From the sequence record PZ452607.1: a stretch of DNA of 48,737 nt. One strand, 5' to 3'. This document shows, in pieces, positions 8,756-46,950 of this stretch; within the stretch, counting starts at the first letter, position 1; each line of letters starts with the position of its first letter. The stretch comes from a phage. The notes beneath the pieces were generated by a model that saw nothing but the letters and a program-made list of their open reading frames with translations, searched no databases and was not told the origin of the DNA. Made by a program: the position numbers and the translations under genes.

Positions 8756-9143
8756 GTTATCAGCGGCGGCGCGAGCCGCTTTTCTATCAAAGTACAGAGA
8801 CTTTCCTCACTACATGGAAAACAGAAATTTCACACCGCCGAAGGATGGCGGGATGTGGCTGAGGTTCAACTACATTGAAGGGGATACGCTTTATCTATCC
8901 ATTGACAGAAAGTGTAAATCTTACATCGCAATCGTTCAGATCGGCGTAGTGTTCCCTCCAGGCTCCGGCGTTGACGAAGCAAGATTGAAAGCAAAAGAGA
9001 TTGCTGATTTTTTCAAAGATGGTAAAATGCTTAACGTTGGTTATATTTTCGAGGGTGCAATCGTGCATCAAATTGTTAAACATGAAAGCGGGTGGATGAT
9101 TCCGGTTCGCTTTACAGTACGAGTAGACACAAAGGAGACTTAA
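8745..9143 (+). CDS. tail terminator-like protein
   Basis: ORF between neck protein and major tail protein. Confidence 0.35.
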   Translation: MHYELSAAARAAFLSKYRDFPHYMENRNFTPPKDGGMWLRFNYIEGDTLYLSIDRKCKSYIAIVQIGVVFPPGSGVDEARLKAKEIADFFKDGKMLNVGYIFEGAIVHQIVKHESGWMIPVRFTVRVDTKET

Positions 9144-31778: not shown

Positions 31779-32912
31779 ATGTCACAAGCTAAAATCACTA
31801 CCGAGCAACTTATCGAAGAGCGCATGAGCGGCCTGACACTTCGCGAGATCGCGGAAAAGTACGGTATGCACATTCGCACTGTCGAGGCGCGTCACGCAAA
31901 ACTTGCAAAAGAAGGCCACTTCCACGGCAACGAGCATGTTGCTAAGATGGTTCCGGAAGGCTTCATGGTAAAAGGCACGTCAACCATGATTGACGCGGAA
32001 GGTAACGAGAAGATTCGTTGGGTTAAGACATCAGTTGATAATGAGCGCCTTGAGGTTCTAATGGAAAAAGCGCGTGAAGCATTCTGTTCAGAGTTGCCTA
32101 AGGCTATTCCATCTGAATCACCTGACGTTAGTTTTGATGAAGACACGCTTGCGATGTATCCAGTTTTTGATTTGCACATTGGTGCTCTTGCTCACAAACA
32201 TGAGTGCGGCGAAAACTACGACACAGCGACAGCAGAGAAGGTTATGAATGGGTTCTTTGACTACGCTGTAGATAAGGCGCCAAACTCAAAGAATGCCGTA
32301 TTGGTATTGGGTGGCGATTTCCTACATTACGACTCTTTGGAGTCTAAGACTCCAGCGTCAGGCCATTACTTAGATTCTGACAGTCGTTACGCTAAGCTTG
32401 TTTATGTCGCAATCCGATCAGTACGACGCGCAGTCTCTCGAATGCTGGAGAAGCACCAAGTTATTGATATTAAAGCAATAAGTGGGAATCACGACGAATC
32501 AGGGATGGTTTGGTTGCGCGCTGCGCTTGCTGCATTTTATGAAGATGAGCCGCGCGTAAATGTTGATGTTAGCCCTGCCGCAATGATGATGACCAGCTTT
32601 GGTAAGACCCTTATTGGATACACTCACGGGCATCAAATGCGAAAAGCAGATACTCGACTAAGTGTTATGGCAACTGATTTTCGTAAGTTGTTTGGTCAAA
32701 GTGATTACGTTTACACGCATAGCGGTCACTGGCACAGTCAAAAGATTACAGAAACAAACTTGGGTATTGATGAGGTTCATGGTCAGCTTGGAAGTCCTGA
32801 CGCATACTCTGCCAATGGCGGTTGGAGGTCTCAGCGTCAAGCTGCTGTGATTGTCTATCACAAGGAATTTGGTGAGGTTGGACGATTCATTTGTCGACCT
32901 GAAATGTTCTAA
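31779..32912 (+). CDS. calcineurin-like metallophosphoesterase with N-terminal HTH-like region
   Basis: Motifs DxH (DLHIG), GDxxD (GGDFLHYD), GNHD, GH, GHxH (HSGHWH) in canonical order. Confidence 0.6.
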   Translation: MSQAKITTEQLIEERMSGLTLREIAEKYGMHIRTVEARHAKLAKEGHFHGNEHVAKMVPEGFMVKGTSTMIDAEGNEKIRWVKTSVDNERLEVLMEKAREAFCSELPKAIPSESPDVSFDEDTLAMYPVFDLHIGALAHKHECGENYDTATAEKVMNGFFDYAVDKAPNSKNAVLVLGGDFLHYDSLESKTPASGHYLDSDSRYAKLVYVAIRSVRRAVSRMLEKHQVIDIKAISGNHDESGMVWLRAALAAFYEDEPRVNVDVSPAAMMMTSFGKTLIGYTHGHQMRKADTRLSVMATDFRKLFGQSDYVYTHSGHWHSQKITETNLGIDEVHGQLGSPDAYSANGGWRSQRQAAVIVYHKEFGEVGRFICRPEMF

Positions 32913-32984: not shown

Positions 32985-33467
32985 ATGAACTGGCACGAGC
33001 ATTACGAATATAGGGATGGTGTTCTATATCACAAGGTAAAGCCATGCAGAAGGCATGATGTAAATATTGGGGATGTTGCTGGAAGGGTTGCCAAAAACGG
33101 CTATCACTATGTTGTTCACAAGAACAGGCCGTATAAGAGATCTCGAGTTATATGGGAGATGTTTAATGGTGAGATACCAGATGGTTTTGTTATAGATCAT
33201 CTGAATCACAATGCCACCGATGATAGGATCGATAACCTTGAGTGTAAGCCAAGAAGAGAGAATATGGTTAATGTTAAGTTAAGGATTGATAGCACGACCG
33301 GAGTAACTGGCGTATCAATAAAGAGGGATAACAAGTGGAGGGCGTACATAACAATTATGGGTAAGCAGAAGTGCAAGAGCTTTGACACGTTTGAGGAAGC
33401 TTGCGCGCAGAGGATTGAATGGTCAGTAACTCATGATTTTCACCCAAATCACGGTGGAACATACTAA
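32985..33467 (+). CDS. HNH homing endonuclease
   Basis: HNH core (DHLNHN..DDRIDNLE) plus AP2-like DNA-binding tail; paralogous to 37042..37581 and 45258..45752. Confidence 0.75.
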   Translation: MNWHEHYEYRDGVLYHKVKPCRRHDVNIGDVAGRVAKNGYHYVVHKNRPYKRSRVIWEMFNGEIPDGFVIDHLNHNATDDRIDNLECKPRRENMVNVKLRIDSTTGVTGVSIKRDNKWRAYITIMGKQKCKSFDTFEEACAQRIEWSVTHDFHPNHGGTY

Positions 33468-35473: not shown

Positions 35474-37042
35474 TTAACCCATCAGTCGAGGATTGATGAA
35501 AACAATATCATCAATCCGGCAAGTGTAGTTCATCTCTTCGAGCGTGATCAGCAGGCTGTCGATTCGCTCAGCTACTTTTTGTTGACCGTTGAACGGCGTA
35601 ACGTTACGGCACTTTGCAACAATGCTATGAATAGGTGCGCGACCTTTGTTCTTCTTTGCGATCTCAGTGATAACATCAATCAGCTTACGAGATTCAGCCT
35701 CATCACCAGCATACCCGGCGGCGCTGGCAGACGACAGATAGGTTCTGGAAAGCTCATTGAAAATCATGATCGCTTCCTGCATTGTTTCAAGGTCAATCTC
35801 ACGGTTGGAACGGTTCGGTGATTCACCCTCCCAGTTCTTGATTGTGTGAAGAACTGAAGCAATGCGCAAAGCGTGCTTATCGAACTTGCCGAGATGACCG
35901 CGTAGCATTGAGTGAGAGTATTTGCCCCCGGCTGCGAAATCCGGCTCCATAGCCTGGCGAGCAAGGTTTAATTCACGCATAGCATTACGGCTTACAGAGA
36001 GAACAACGTTGTCCTCCTTCATAATGTTGTGCACAAGTCGATAATATTTACTCACCAATCCTCGATCGACTTCCTTATACAGTGCATCACCATTTTCATC
36101 GCAAAGAATACGAGTGCCTAAAAGAGGTTCCTCGCGAACCAATAGGAAACGCTCAGATACACCGATACCGCGCTGGCCTGCGTCCATGATACCCTTGATT
36201 GTTTCATCCTGCGCAATGACGCAGATCGAACCGACCGGGCAAAGAGATAAGTTATTGTCCTGATTTGAACGCGCAACCTCCATATGGTTTTTATCCCACG
36301 CCTTGAGGATAAGCTCGCTGTTTGATTTCTTATCAGAACCGCCATAAGTCAGGCCAAGCAATGTATTTATTGCCGTTGCCTCATCAGAGATTACGGAAAA
36401 GTGGCCTTGAACAGCAGCTACTTTCGCAAGACCTTCCGGTGTAGGATCTGATACCGCGAAAACAATATCAGCCATCTTCTTGATCTTCTCTTCCAGTTTT
36501 TCCTTGTCCTCGTACAGCGCCGCCGTCGTGTTACCCTTCGGATCGTTTTTGATTTCCTTCTCGATCTGACGTAGCTGACTGGTTAAACGGATACGTTCCT
36601 TTTTGCGCTCTTCATTCAGTCTCTGAATCTCTGCGCGCATAGGTGTAATCGCCGCTGAGTTAATCGCGGATTTACCTGTTGATGGTGGCTGGCTAATCAC
36701 CATATAAAGAGCGGTCGGTTGTTCTTCTCCGTGATATTGCACCCAAAACTTCCCTAGCATCGCGGCTGAGATGCACCCAATGAAATGAGCGTACGCAGAC
36801 GAAACAGGAAACTGTACAGACTCAGCTTTTGCTTTTGCATATTCGAATACCAGGTTATCGCCACCTAACGAAATCAGCGGGAACTTATCGTTTCCACTGT
36901 TGATATCGATCGGGTCTTGCCAAAACGAAACTGAATCCCCGTAGCTGTTTTCACGAATTGCGATCGCCACCGGATTAACTCCAGTGCTATTTGCGATCTC
37001 AATAATCTGTTGGTAATTCAGTTTTGGCTTAATATTAAACAT
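35474..37042 (-). CDS. P-loop ATPase, putative replication protein (DUF3987-like)
   Basis: Walker A-like PPSTGKS and Walker B-like VIAQDE; RBS AAGGAG before ATG (minus) at 37042; track ORF has 21-codon N-extension. Confidence 0.45.
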   Translation of the reverse strand: MFNIKPKLNYQQIIEIANSTGVNPVAIAIRENSYGDSVSFWQDPIDINSGNDKFPLISLGGDNLVFEYAKAKAESVQFPVSSAYAHFIGCISAAMLGKFWVQYHGEEQPTALYMVISQPPSTGKSAINSAAITPMRAEIQRLNEERKKERIRLTSQLRQIEKEIKNDPKGNTTAALYEDKEKLEEKIKKMADIVFAVSDPTPEGLAKVAAVQGHFSVISDEATAINTLLGLTYGGSDKKSNSELILKAWDKNHMEVARSNQDNNLSLCPVGSICVIAQDETIKGIMDAGQRGIGVSERFLLVREEPLLGTRILCDENGDALYKEVDRGLVSKYYRLVHNIMKEDNVVLSVSRNAMRELNLARQAMEPDFAAGGKYSHSMLRGHLGKFDKHALRIASVLHTIKNWEGESPNRSNREIDLETMQEAIMIFNELSRTYLSSASAAGYAGDEAESRKLIDVITEIAKKNKGRAPIHSIVAKCRNVTPFNGQQKVAERIDSLLITLEEMNYTCRIDDIVFINPRLMG

Positions 37043-37581
37043 CACAATAAACTCCTTAGTTGACGGCGTGAATGATACACCGTCAATGGTACACGCGTTT
37101 TGCAAAAAGTGCTATTCGATCCGTGATTCTCATGAAAACCGTATAGCCTTTCCGCTTCCTTCCTTGCTTTAGCCGCTGCATCCAGCGTCATGAAGGTCCC
37201 TAAGTGTTTTGTCTTTTTATTTATGGTTATGTTTGCCGTGTATCTATTTGTTTTTTTATTCCAATACACTCCCATAACTCCTGTGTTTGATGACACTACT
37301 CCCTTGTTTCTTAGGTTGTCTTGCCTAGTTACTAGCCTGAGATTCTCAATTCTGTTATCGTCTCTTTCATGGTTTATGTGGTCTACATCCATTCCTTCTG
37401 GTATGTTTCCGTAGTGTATTTTCCATACTATTCGATGGGCGTATTCAAATACACCTCCTGGAAAACATATTGACCGATAACCTTTTTTATTAACAGTTCC
37501 GGCAAGTAGATTTCGTCTTCTTCCGATTCTCCACTCTTTCCAGTACAGTCTCCCGCTAACGTATTTCAGTTCATCTTTCAT
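37042..37581 (-). CDS. HNH homing endonuclease
   Basis: HNH core (DHINHERDDNRIENLRLV) plus AP2-like tail; C-terminal about 25 codons read through the promoter box of the downstream gene; stop overlaps next start (TGATG). Confidence 0.7.
   Translation of the reverse strand: MKDELKYVSGRLYWKEWRIGRRRNLLAGTVNKKGYRSICFPGGVFEYAHRIVWKIHYGNIPEGMDVDHINHERDDNRIENLRLVTRQDNLRNKGVVSSNTGVMGVYWNKKTNRYTANITINKKTKHLGTFMTLDAAAKARKEAERLYGFHENHGSNSTFCKTRVPLTVYHSRRQLRSLL
37072..37116 (-). promoter_or_regulatory. box + hairpin + -10 element upstream of ATPase gene (inside 3' end of HNH ORF)
   Basis: Minus strand AATAGCACTTTTTGCAAAAC, 22 nt, TATCAT; inverted repeat TTGACGGTG/CGCCGTCAA around -10. Confidence 0.5.
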
Positions 37582-43828: not shown

Positions 43829-43934
43829 GAGAAAACACTATGCCAGACTTTTCTAACTGGAATAACGAGCCGCCATCATTTCAGGAGTTGCTATTCTGCC
43901 TCCTGGTCCTGACATTATCTCTTAAGGGTGTTTT

Positions 43935-44153
43935 ATGGCTACTATCATGACAGTAGAAGATGCAGCACGCGATGCAGTGGAAGGAATGCGCCCAAATACC
44001 TCCAGAATAGCACACTACTACAAATCTGAGGTGTCGGTAGTGCAATTGGTCCACGAAATTTTAAGGCTCCCACAAGTCGATTCAGCGCGCGTTGTGACGT
44101 GCTTAAAAAATTATTTTTGCATCACTATTAAAACGAATAGCACGAATTGCTAA
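43935..44153 (+). CDS. hypothetical protein
   Basis: 72-aa ORF; 3' end reads through box copy; overlaps a possible 36-aa hydrophobic ORF at 43840..43950. Confidence 0.3.
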   Translation: MATIMTVEDAARDAVEGMRPNTSRIAHYYKSEVSVVQLVHEILRLPQVDSARVVTCLKNYFCITIKTNSTNC

Positions 44154-44180
44154 AACCTATCAAGGGGAATACGCTATGAT
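44136..44180 (+). promoter_or_regulatory. box + hairpin + -10 element
   Basis: AATAGCACGAATTGCTAAAAC, 22 nt, TATGAT; stem GGGGAAT/ATTCCCC. Confidence 0.55.
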
Positions 44181-44210
44181 TCCCCTACACCAACAAACGA
44201 GGAAGCGATC

Positions 44211-44657
44211 ATGAAACACTTAATCTGCATTGAAGCGCCTAACGATCAATACACCCTGCATGGACTTGGTGTGTTCAAAGGTCACTACATTACCGCAGGA
44301 ACTTACGATGCTCGTCGCGGCGATGGCGACCTAATGATTACGTCAAAAGAAGTAAATCCGTACATCATGCAGAATCTTGGCAATAACGAATATATGGCCT
44401 ATGGCTGCAACGCGGTGTACAAGCACGTTAAGATCCGCAAGCGTGTTGTGCGTGCATTCAAGAAGATTGCAATTAAATACTGGAAAATGAGCAAGAAAGA
44501 TGCCGGACGTTGGGCGCGCAACGTTGCAGATTCATACTTCTATCGTAACGGCGAATCCTGCTACTTCCTGATCGATGAACTTATGGAAAACTACGGTGGC
44601 GACTTCAGCCAGGGTAGCTTTGATGACTGGGCCAACTATGAGATCAGTTGCTGGTAA
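44211..44657 (+). CDS. hypothetical protein
   Basis: RBS GAGGAAG; box/hairpin/-10 element upstream. Confidence 0.45.
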   Translation: MKHLICIEAPNDQYTLHGLGVFKGHYITAGTYDARRGDGDLMITSKEVNPYIMQNLGNNEYMAYGCNAVYKHVKIRKRVVRAFKKIAIKYWKMSKKDAGRWARNVADSYFYRNGESCYFLIDELMENYGGDFSQGSFDDWANYEISCW

Positions 44658-44700
44658 TAGCACGAATTGCTAAAACTTGCTCAAGGGCATTTGTTAGAAT
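44656..44700 (+). promoter_or_regulatory. box + hairpin + extended -10 element
   Basis: AATAGCACGAATTGCTAAAAC, 22 nt, TGtTAGAAT; stem AAGGGCATT/AATGCCCTT. Confidence 0.55.
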
Positions 44701-44740
44701 GCCCTTCGTTGAGTTAAGCAACCAATCAGAGGAATAAATC

Positions 44741-45271
44741 ATGGATAAAATCACAATTTGGGGCCAGACAATCAACCTGTTTCTCGGCACGCGCCGAGTG
44801 GCAATCTTTGACTTTGACGGGACACTTAGCGATGGATCTGGTCGACTTCACCTGCTGCCAACAAAGGATTTGCACTTGACTGAAAGCTGGTCTGAGTTTA
44901 ACCGAGCGGCAATATTTGATAACCCAATCCAGAGCACGATCGATGTGATGAACTCTATGTTTGCCGCTGGGTATCATGTGATCATTTTAACCGGGCGAAG
45001 TGATGAGGTGCGTTACGCATCTGAGTTATGGCTTAAGCATCACGGCGCTCGATATGATTACTTAGTCATGCGACCGCATACCGACAACCGCAAAGACACG
45101 GTAATGAAAGAAGAGGCAGTGCGCGCTATCGGCATTGATAACATTCTTGCGGCTTGGGATGACTCAGTGAATATAATAAAAAAATTCAGAGATCTAGGGA
45201 TAACCACATATCAGGTTTGTGAATATGCCTGTGATAGTCGAGAGGATTTAAATAGTCATGGTGTCGATTGA
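44741..45271 (+). CDS. HAD-superfamily phosphatase
   Basis: Motif I FDFDGT, motif II ILTGR, motif IV WDDS. Confidence 0.6.
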   Translation: MDKITIWGQTINLFLGTRRVAIFDFDGTLSDGSGRLHLLPTKDLHLTESWSEFNRAAIFDNPIQSTIDVMNSMFAAGYHVIILTGRSDEVRYASELWLKHHGARYDYLVMRPHTDNRKDTVMKEEAVRAIGIDNILAAWDDSVNIIKKFRDLGITTYQVCEYACDSREDLNSHGVD

Positions 45272-45752
45272 TAACAAATCAATGGTAAGAGAGTTATTTA
45301 CTTATTCTGACGGCGTTCTGTATTGGAAGGCCAAATCATCTAAATACAGTAGAACTAAAATAGGAGGCGCGGCAGGAAGCAAGGATAAAGACGGATACAT
45401 AATAATCAGAGTAAGAAACGAAACTAGAGGCGCTCACAGGCTTGTATGGATATACCATAATGGCAAGATACCTGATGGAATGGAGGTAGACCATATGGAT
45501 GGAGACATAACAAACAATAGAATAGAAAACCTAAGATTGGTAACGAGAACCATAAATAACAGGAATCAAAAAAAGAGATCTGATAACACAACCGGAGTAT
45601 CCGGTGTAACTTTCATGAAAGATAGAGGAAAGTATAGGGCGCAAGTTAGAAACAAGAGACTCGGGCAGTTCGACACAATAGAAGAGGCCGCCAAAGCAGT
45701 AAAGGATGAGCGGGATAGATTAGGTTTATTCACAAAAAGACACGGGGTGTAA
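45258..45752 (+). CDS. HNH homing endonuclease
   Basis: HNH core (DHMDGDITNNRIENLRLV) plus AP2-like tail; lies between phosphatase and kinase genes. Confidence 0.75.
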   Translation: MVSIDNKSMVRELFTYSDGVLYWKAKSSKYSRTKIGGAAGSKDKDGYIIIRVRNETRGAHRLVWIYHNGKIPDGMEVDHMDGDITNNRIENLRLVTRTINNRNQKKRSDNTTGVSGVTFMKDRGKYRAQVRNKRLGQFDTIEEAAKAVKDERDRLGLFTKRHGV

Positions 45753-45754
45753 AC

Positions 45755-46327
45755 ATGAAAACAGCTATCATTTTAAACGGCGCACCTGGTGCGGGAAAGG
45801 ACACTATCGGATGCATCCTGGCTGACACTTACGATCATGTAGCGCTACGCAGCTTCAAAGCGCCAATGTTTGAGATTGCCCGAGCAATCCTGGGTGAGAC
45901 TAATTTCGAGTATTTCATGTTCTTGTATGAGGACCGTCGCTATAAAGAAGAGCCAGCGTCAATCCTGAACGGTAAAAGCCCGCGCCAGTTTATGATCTGG
46001 ATTAGCGAGGAGGTCATCAAGCCGCAGTTCGGAAATCGCTTCTTCGGTATGCGAGCGGAAAGTAAGGTGAAAGAGTCGCATTCACTTTCGGTATTTACTG
46101 ACGGTGGATTCAAAGACGAGATCTTGCAGATGATTGAAGGTGACATCCAGGTCAAGCTGTGTCGAATCCATCGCAACGGTTGCAACTTTGACAACGACAG
46201 TCGCGACTATATCTATCTTGACGATATGATCGGGGTCAACGGTTATCAGGAGTGTGACTTCTTTTCTGTCGAAGGCCATCCAGAAATTACCGCTCAGCAC
46301 ATAGCCGCCACGTTCATCAATAAATAG
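45755..46327 (+). CDS. P-loop nucleotide/polynucleotide kinase
   Basis: Walker A GAPGAGKDT at N-terminus; size fits dNMP kinase or Pnk kinase domain. Confidence 0.55.
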   Translation: MKTAIILNGAPGAGKDTIGCILADTYDHVALRSFKAPMFEIARAILGETNFEYFMFLYEDRRYKEEPASILNGKSPRQFMIWISEEVIKPQFGNRFFGMRAESKVKESHSLSVFTDGGFKDEILQMIEGDIQVKLCRIHRNGCNFDNDSRDYIYLDDMIGVNGYQECDFFSVEGHPEITAQHIAATFINK

Positions 46328-46367
46328 CACGAATTGCTAAAACGTCGGTGTGGTGATTTGATATAGT
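46323..46367 (+). promoter_or_regulatory. box + extended -10 element
   Basis: AATAGCACGAATTGCTAAAAC, 22 nt, TGaTATAGT; TAG of box is the kinase stop codon. Confidence 0.55.
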
Positions 46368-46399
46368 TACCTCATCGACAACGAAGAGAGAAAATCGAA

Positions 46400-46609
46400 A
46401 TGATGGTATCAACTGATAAGTTTTTCACTTGCACCAAAACTTCTGAGGTATTCGAGCTGGTTCATACTGACAACGGTGATTTCATGCATGACGGTTGCGA
46501 CGCTTTCATTGAAGTGAAAGAAAGCGACTATGACGACGGAGTTTATTACAACCCTGCGGTTAACACGCAGTTTTTTACCCCGATCGAAGAGGAAGGAGAA
46601 GAGGCATGA
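46400..46609 (+). CDS. small acidic hypothetical protein
   Basis: 69 aa, acidic C-terminus (EEEGEEA); box/-10 element upstream. Confidence 0.4.
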   Translation: MMVSTDKFFTCTKTSEVFELVHTDNGDFMHDGCDAFIEVKESDYDDGVYYNPAVNTQFFTPIEEEGEEA

Positions 46610-46950
46610 TCACGATTAACCTGTCAGATAAACAAGCGCGTGAAATACTAGACACTATCGGAGAACAGCTTCACGTAAAAGGCGATACCGCTGAGATTCT
46701 TAACCAGATCGAAAGACAGCTAACCCCTGTGTCGACGAATCAAGCTGAGTTCGCAGCATGGAAAAGCGAACGCATCCTGCCAAATATCATCAAGGCATGG
46801 AAGCGCAAGCATAAAAAAGAAATCAACGTTGAGGATTTATTTACCGATGAATTAAGTCCTTCAAATGTTGCTCAATACCAGTTGCGATACATGGAGTCGG
46901 TTTGCAATCAGGTTTTAGGTGTAAGTTTTTCATTCAAAGGTGATAAATAA
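46606..46950 (+). CDS. hypothetical protein
   Basis: ATGA overlap coupling. Confidence 0.45.
   Translation: MITINLSDKQAREILDTIGEQLHVKGDTAEILNQIERQLTPVSTNQAEFAAWKSERILPNIIKAWKRKHKKEINVEDLFTDELSPSNVAQYQLRYMESVCNQVLGVSFSFKGDK

Follow-up and report, generated by a model that had tools for sequence, protein, structure and literature searches.

A conserved pair of a Pnkp-family phosphatase gene and a T4 gp1-like kinase gene in T1-like phages, its probable role in nucleotide salvage, and an HNH homing cassette at its junction

The locus and its prior annotation

The window analyzed here, a stretch of 48,737 nucleotides (PZ452607.1), is the genome of coliphage T1. Its region 43900-46700 is 99.9% identical to AY216660, NC_005833, MK213796 and MN153797, and the window as a whole is a circular permutation of the T1 genome that starts at position 8945 of MN153797. 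An earlier note made from the sequence had described in it a HAD phosphatase gene and a P-loop kinase gene with an HNH endonuclease gene between them. The three open reading frames lie on the + strand exactly where that note had placed them, and the motifs which it quoted, namely FDFDGT, ILTGR and WDDS in the HAD protein and GAPGAGKDT in the kinase, are all present; the family matches of the three proteins, given below, are much too strong to be due to chance. The features considered below are the following:

31779..32912, + strand: metallophosphoesterase of phrog_704, annotated as "DNA repair exonuclease", 377 aa, a likely pathway partner (phrog_704 at 7e-155, with a weak Metallophos match)
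44741..45271, + strand: stand-alone Pnkp-family HAD 3'-phosphatase, 176 aa, T1 CPTT1_014 (profile matches, motifs)
45074..45837, + strand: tract near-identical to phage JMPW2 (1 mismatch in 764 nt), comprising the cassette and roughly 90 nt to its left and right, which we interpret as a co-conversion tract
45167..45752, + strand: mobile cassette, made up of a divergent HAD 3' tail (last 34 codons) and the HNH gene (identity drop, GC content)
45258..45752, + strand: free-standing HNH homing endonuclease, 164 aa, CPTT1_015, with HNH_3 and a weak AP2-like DNA-binding domain (profile matches)
45755..46327, + strand: P-loop kinase of the T4 gp1 family (phrog_139), probably a dNMP kinase, 190 aa, T1 CPTT1_016 (phrog_139 match, fold)

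The three genes and their labels are already known from GenBank and two recent papers. In AY216660, where annotated rho-independent terminators bound the block with CPTT1_014-016, these genes are named "polynucleotide kinase" (by HHpred to T4 Pnk, 5UJ0), "HNH endonuclease" and "deoxynucleotide kinase" (by HHpred to T4 DNK), respectively. The T1 map in PMC13164509 (2026) names the trio PNK, HNH and dNMP kinase, and the same paper mentions "occasional repositioning of HNH nucleases" in T1, KanT1 and phi2013; the 2024 re-annotation of phage TLS (PMC11447400) gives the orthologs the same names. Literature searches on PNK and the dNMP kinase of the T1 family, or on any link of theirs to anticodon nucleases, gave annotation-level statements only, and no biochemical work on either enzyme from a T1-like phage. 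To this picture we add the boundaries of the HNH cassette, its co-conversion tract, the replaced tail of the HAD gene and the recognition of "polynucleotide kinase" as a misannotation, along with two more modest additions, namely natural HAD-kinase fusions and a trio of exonuclease, HAD and kinase genes.

The HAD protein is a Pnkp-type phosphatase lacking a kinase domain

Profile searches place the HAD protein in the Pnkp phosphatase family and not among the sugar phosphatases, a placement that had been left to be checked when the gene was first noted. It matches the Pfam HAD_PNKP model (PF25109) with an E-value of 6.9e-17 (62 bits, against a curated cut-off of 27.6) and phrog_415 with an E-value of 1e-63, and its catalytic motifs I-IV are intact. 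Across 29 members of the family D24, D26, T28, R35, R86, K118 and D119 are invariant, while T84, D140 and D141 are conserved in at least 90%; the protein thus combines the DxDxT nucleophile motif of a HAD-type 3'-phosphatase with the Arg and Asp residues specific to Pnkp. PDB-wide searches place it nearest in structure to Pnkp1 and T4 Pnkp, both of them RNA-repair enzymes, and neither eukaryotic PNKP nor Tpp1 was among the top matches.

No kinase domain is found in this protein. Unlike T4 Pnkp (PseT; PDB 1LTQ, 5UJ0) and the Capnocytophaga Pnkp1 (4XRP), it consists of a phosphatase domain alone (176 aa), and it has neither a Pnk-type kinase domain nor an annotated partner ligase. A Pnk-type P-loop 5'-kinase domain was found neither in the same polypeptide nor in its partner, the adjacent kinase being from another family. 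For these reasons the database name "polynucleotide kinase" is a misnomer. A HAD 3'-phosphatase without a kinase domain has a precedent in yeast Tpp1, which is a stand-alone DNA 3'-phosphatase.

The adjacent kinase belongs to the T4 gp1 family

The second enzyme, in which GAPGAGKDT occupies residues 9-17, matches phrog_139 with an E-value of 1.1e-46 over profile positions 82-260. T4 gp1, which has been characterized experimentally, matches the same profile over an almost coincident range (positions 83-261, E-value 1.8e-65), and the two proteins hence belong to one remote-homology family. In a fold comparison the closest solved structure to the T1 kinase has the gp1 fold (1DEK), the closest folds overall being gp1 and phosphomevalonate kinase, and the GKDT signature of the P-loop is common to the T1 kinase and gp1. 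The relationship is a distant one: the T1 kinase is 12% identical to gp1 and 50 residues shorter, and it matches no Pfam or NCBIfam dNMP-kinase model above cut-off. An hhalign comparison of the kinase family with the single T4 gp1 sequence gave a probability of 78% over the N-terminal 74 columns only, with the match stopping where gp1 grows longer than the T1 kinase family. Single-sequence and HMM-profile searches of the PDB sequences with the kinase gave generic P-loop matches only and did not reach 1DEK, for which the fold comparison was needed. On the strength of the shared profile and fold the T1 kinase is probably a dNMP kinase of the T4 gp1 type, with a putative substrate specificity. 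The phosphorylation of hm-dCMP that is specific to gp1 does not apply to T1, as this phage lacks modified bases.

This kinase family is large, with 4,406 cluster representatives at E < 1e-3 and 1,431 phage records. We sampled the gene context of six loci from Vequintavirinae, Gordonclarkvirinae, Autographiviridae and Chaseviridae. The kinase gene adjoins those for thymidylate synthase and RNR in Vequintavirus, for dUTPase and DNA ligase in phiEcoM-GJ1 and for an anaerobic NTP reductase in PVN03, and it lies next to exonuclease genes in Kuravirus and two Autographiviridae phages. Its neighbors in all six loci being genes of nucleotide metabolism or replication, the family belongs firmly in nucleotide metabolism. 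As a side observation, the record of Vibrio phage Vp_R1 is one of Grimontviridae.

The HNH gene is part of a mobile cassette that includes a variant HAD 3' end

The HNH protein matches Pfam HNH_3 over profile positions 2-46 of 46 (E-value 2.1e-22), i.e. with an intact catalytic domain, and phrog_99 with an E-value of 1.5e-60; a match to AP2 (3e-4) falls below cut-off. The gene is tightly packed between its neighbors, its start overlapping the end of the HAD gene by 14 nt and its stop being followed after 2 nt by the ATG of the kinase. Two paralogous HNH genes with 39-41% identity are encoded elsewhere in T1, one of them directly after the phrog_704 exonuclease gene.

Comparison with relatives that lack the HNH gene fixes the boundaries of the cassette. 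The flanks are 86-97% identical between T1 and these relatives; still within the HAD coding sequence, identity drops to 54-58% in 45167-45257, and it resumes exactly at the ATG of the kinase. The GC content of the cassette is 38.9%, versus 48.4% and 47.6% in the flanks. Against JMPW2, which also carries the cassette, the tail and the HNH gene are 100% identical and the flanks 87-97%, with the mismatches distributed very unevenly: 38 in 44920-45073, 1 in 45074-45837 and 10 in 45838-45910. A recent homing event in which the flanks were co-converted would be expected to leave just such a distribution.

The affinities of the two parts of the HAD protein are opposed. The tail of the T1 version is 71% identical in amino acids and 76% in nucleotides to Nouzillyvirus TH21, versus 53% and 57%, respectively, to its own clade, whereas the N-terminal 142 residues show the reverse, with 59% identity to TH21 and 97% to their own clade. 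Therefore, the mobile unit brings with it a HAD 3' end of its own. The same HAD-HNH-kinase arrangement occurs in TH21, the HNH proteins being 62% identical.

The cassette is sporadic in its distribution. Nine of 120 matching phage records cover the region at 80% or more, and 8 of these (T1, JMPW2 and Eco_BIFF records) have the cassette; at high identity it is confined to these records, the other matching records lacking the HNH gene. An HNH gene at the HAD-kinase junction was seen only in T1, JMPW2 and Eco_BIFF (3 Tunavirus genomes) and in TH21, and among 80 IMG/VR loci with the kinase it lies between the two genes in 3, with one further remnant. We also considered vB_SsoS_008 as a decaying HNH site and set it aside; its HAD and kinase genes are fragmented as well, with damaged motifs, and the sequence may be of poor quality.

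In the relatives without the HNH gene the HAD protein has 177 or 203 aa, the longer form, as in LeonhardEuler, ending in VCNHEPSEPLPPFGEKICIKCKELLK with a CxH...CxxC pattern, and a 36-aa hydrophobic ORF lies between the HAD and kinase genes. Relative to these genomes the cassette has put a divergent sequence in place of the final ~105 nt of the HAD gene, and it has displaced both a 27-aa C-terminal extension of the HAD protein and the 36-aa ORF. The HNH gene is thus an intruder inside the pair, much as originally proposed; it did not, however, enter cleanly between two intact genes, as the tail of the first was exchanged and a small ORF was lost. In being an intergenic ORF between conserved genes, and in its sporadic occurrence, co-conversion tract, divergent flanking target gene and low GC content, it resembles other free-standing phage homing endonucleases (e.g. 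T4 Seg and Mob, and the HNH enzymes of T1-like phages). It differs from them in that the cassette supplies a functional substitute for the last 34 codons of the upstream gene and has deleted 27 codons and the 36-aa ORF; its cleavage specificity is putative. We infer that the target of the HNH enzyme is the HAD 3' end or the junction in genomes with an empty site, with the divergent tail conferring immunity.

The HAD and kinase genes form a conserved pair with natural fusions

The linkage of the two genes was examined in the 80 IMG/VR loci, in which the kinase is 42-100% identical to that of T1. The HAD gene lies upstream of the kinase gene on the same strand in 74, always in this order, with a gap of 3-6 nt in about 25 of the 74 and of 115-2171 nt in the rest. 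No HAD gene was seen in the other 6, over the upstream sequence covered (up to 4 kb; ~470 nt in one). The two genes also remain paired where their genomic position differs: the T1 clade has them before terS, other clades after the exonuclease gene. HAD and kinase are hence a conserved, co-oriented pair in Drexlerviridae.

An exhaustive profile search further recovered two proteins, P0218 (403 aa) and P0231 (461 aa), in each of which an N-terminal HAD_PNKP domain is joined to a C-terminal kinase; they have a conserved linker motif in common. P0218 occurs on three contigs; the two places shown are from two different samples, one of them on a 60.7-kb phage contig where the gene neighborhood differs from that of T1. 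We accordingly regard P0218 and P0231 as genuine fusions, and they support functional coupling of the HAD and kinase domains. The claim that the HNH gene sits within a functional pair is thereby strengthened as regards the pair, which is genuine and conserved, with natural fusions in the same order.

A third gene is drawn in by this analysis. The phrog_704 exonuclease gene is located ~13 kb from the pair in T1, but exonuclease, HAD and kinase genes are contiguous in that order in 22 of the 80 loci, in agreement with the description in PMC13164509. A phrog_704 homolog (E-value 2e-149) is also encoded directly downstream of a fusion gene (L088). An RNA ligase was sought beside the fusion gene, and its 386-aa neighbor turned out to be this exonuclease instead.

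Outside Drexlerviridae the picture changes: no HAD_PNKP gene was found within 3.5 kb of the kinase gene in 7 of 7 loci from other phage families. As the kinase occurs there without a HAD partner, the pairing is lineage-restricted and in part inherited synteny. The kinase is clearly able to work alone, and the pairing is not universal.

Host-DNA breakdown and nucleotide salvage as the best explanation

The host DNA that T1 degrades serves it as a source of nucleotides; the phage lacks a DNA polymerase, and its degradation genes are still unassigned (PMC11447400). We favor, with a probability of roughly 0.6, the reading that the HAD phosphatase and the dNMP kinase together recycle host DNA into nucleotides and that the HNH cassette invaded their junction. 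The locus thus holds three separate elements next to one another, in a single T1 transcription unit whose small genes are located upstream of terS. As the host chromosome is being degraded by T1, the phosphatase would most likely act on DNA ends, oligonucleotides or 3'-phosphorylated nucleotides and strip them of their 3'-phosphates, and by unblocking such ends it would allow exonucleases to finish the degradation. Among these the Mre11/SbcD-like phrog_704 enzyme would release 5'-dNMPs. The gp1-type kinase would turn the dNMPs into dNDPs and so return them toward dNTPs for the host replication machinery that T1 borrows. The cassette, for its part, arrived with its own divergent and presumably cleavage-resistant HAD 3' end and removed the C-terminal extension and the small ORF, and the tight packing of the three frames would preserve expression of the pair.

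This reading is close to an alternative already mentioned in the earlier note, that of a nucleotidase and a dNMP kinase acting in nucleotide metabolism. Of the two readings in that note, this alternative is the one that the evidence favors. A role of PNK and the dNMP kinase in enhancing nucleotide supply has also been proposed independently in PMC13164509. Several observations sit less comfortably with salvage. A phosphatase and a dNMP kinase do not catalyze consecutive steps, and the logic of their fusion is therefore not obvious; the kinase is remote from gp1 and lacks a curated model match; the exonuclease gene is distant from the pair in T1; the kinase occurs without the HAD gene outside Drexlerviridae; and the order of domains in the fusions is that of eukaryotic PNKP, which leaves room for a role in end healing.

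Alternative explanations

A serious rival, which we nonetheless hold to be unlikely, is DNA-end repair by the phosphatase and the exonuclease in the service of repair, recombination or counter-defense. A Tpp1-like HAD enzyme and the phrog_704 nuclease would clean blocked phage ends, for instance after attack by host nucleases, and so allow recombination-dependent replication, with the kinase as a mere replication-support neighbor. The membership of the HAD protein in the Pnkp phosphatase family, the adjacency of phrog_704 both to the HAD gene (22/80) and to a fusion gene, and the recombination system of T1, consisting of an exonuclease, an Erf-like recombinase and an SSB, are all consistent with this. 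It leaves the kinase-phosphatase fusions unexplained, however, and the adjacency of HAD and kinase (74/80) is steadier than that of HAD and exonuclease (22/80).

The fusions would be accounted for if the gp1-like kinase of Drexlerviridae had been recruited as a polynucleotide 5'-kinase, yielding a non-canonical analog of Pnkp for end healing. In eukaryotic PNKP the phosphatase precedes the kinase, the latter being of the Pnk type. The T1 gene order and the fusions have the same succession, a likeness which we draw from domain order, whereas the kinase of the T1 family is of the gp1 and not of the Pnk type. The conserved linker of the fusions and the constant order of HAD and kinase speak for such a recruitment, and 12% identity to gp1 would permit a change of substrate. 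Against it, the enzymes with the closest folds, gp1 and phosphomevalonate kinase, phosphorylate a phosphomonoester and not a hydroxyl, the GKDT signature is retained, and members of the kinase family (30-45% identity) occur alone in nucleotide-metabolism clusters of many phages. We consider this pairing very improbable. In its broadest form the idea would be that, in Drexlerviridae and some other phages, a Pnkp-type phosphatase and a gp1-like kinase make up an unrecognized bifunctional end-processing enzyme, at times a single polypeptide, whose kinase acts on polynucleotide 5'-OH groups and which heals or processes DNA ends during infection together with the phrog_704 nuclease; this we regard as quite improbable.

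Highly improbable, in our judgment, is the reading foremost in the earlier note, that of a split Pnkp for tRNA or RNA repair, in which the HAD enzyme would heal the 2',3'-cyclic or 3'-phosphate ends and the kinase the 5'-OH ends of tRNAs cut by anticodon nucleases, to be resealed by a ligase. The HAD protein is indeed a true Pnkp-family phosphatase nearest in structure to RNA-repair enzymes, and its gene is coupled to, and sometimes fused with, that of a kinase. Yet the kinase is of the wrong family and the neighboring genes are those of DNA metabolism and not of RNA repair. An RNA ligase is, moreover, absent from the two T1 annotations consulted, in which all proteins of at least 300 aa are otherwise assigned, and the lack of an annotated ligase in itself makes tRNA repair unlikely. 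On these three counts repair of the polynucleotide kinase/phosphatase type is not upheld.

Just as improbable is the absence of any functional pair, i.e. of independent accessory genes adjoining through inherited Drexlerviridae synteny only, which would fit the kinases without a HAD gene (7/7 loci of other families and 6/80 in the upstream sequence covered) and the spacers of 3 to 2171 nt, but not the fusion of the domains in at least two distinct proteins, one of them in a neighborhood unlike that of T1, nor the persistence of the pair at two genomic positions.

Implications

The value of these results is mostly corrective, in that hundreds of T1-like genomes name a HAD protein without a kinase domain "polynucleotide kinase", thereby inviting an unsupported reading in terms of tRNA repair. 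The HNH cassette for its part offers a clean and datable case of homing and co-conversion in a classic phage, with boundaries placed to a precision of a few bases and with natural alleles that have an empty site (e.g. those of SH6 and LeonhardEuler). Finally, linkage and fusions nominate three genes, encoding an exonuclease, a 3'-phosphatase and a dNMP kinase, as candidates for the breakdown and reuse of the host chromosome by T1.

The locus with and without the HNH cassette

In Tunaviruses that lack the HNH endonuclease gene a hydrophobic ORF of 36 aa sits between the HAD phosphatase and kinase genes, and in some of these phages the HAD protein carries a 27-aa C-terminal extension with a CxH...CxxC pattern, which could be a zinc binder. 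Phage LeonhardEuler (L002) illustrates both:

L002:2342-2953, HAD gene with the 27-aa C-terminal extension
L002:2950-3060, small hydrophobic ORF, 36 aa

Neither the 36-aa ORF nor the HAD extension is present in T1 between window positions 45271 and 45755; acquisition of the HNH cassette cost this phage both elements.

The same locus is disrupted in Shigella phage vB_SsoS_008, where the kinase is broken into three ORFs and the HAD protein has lost intact motifs. A composite ORF here joins parts of the small hydrophobic reading frame to the HNH fragments AHRLVWIY, ENLRLVT, NNRNQKKRSDNTTGVS and DERDRLGLFTKRHE:

L005:1657-1881, composite ORF of vB_SsoS_008

Two readings fit this locus: a homing site in decay, or an assembly of poor quality. 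Compared with T1, Eco_BIFF has an insertion of about 200 nt directly 5' of the HAD start codon (at about window position 44737 in the alignment).

Architectures and neighbors of the kinase family

The kinase has fusion partners besides HAD, because other family members bear unrelated N-terminal extensions: that of P0347 shows a weak winged-helix match, that of P0267 is a Cys-rich region, and a third occurs in Kuravirus DE5:

L093:3189-4082, N-terminally extended "dNMP kinase" of Kuravirus DE5, 297 aa

In the phage contig encoding a HAD-kinase fusion (L088), the fusion gene and an exonuclease are followed by two further genes:

L088:10647-11609, PAPS-reductase-like gene
L088:11729-12436, Dam-type methyltransferase

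Proteus phage 309 encodes two kinases separated by a lone 93-nt ORF, a near-adjacency that hints at a split in substrate specificity:

L095:2433-3416, "deoxynucleotide monophosphate kinase", 327 aa
L095:3501-4043, T1-family kinase

Other HNH genes

Two further HNH genes of T1 are paralogs of the one at 45258-45752, with 39-41% amino acid identity to it:

32985-33467, + strand, HNH gene
37042-37569, - strand, HNH gene

The former lies immediately 3' of the phrog_704 exonuclease gene (31779-32912), a slot occupied by the HAD-kinase pair in many other Drexlerviridae. In phiEcoM-GJ1, HNH genes break up a cluster of exonuclease, DNA ligase, kinase and dUTPase genes:

L096:2230-2754, HNH endonuclease gene
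L096:5328-5819, HNH endonuclease gene

This phage is a further case of HNH genes settling among replication and nucleotide-metabolism genes beside a kinase of the T1-type family.
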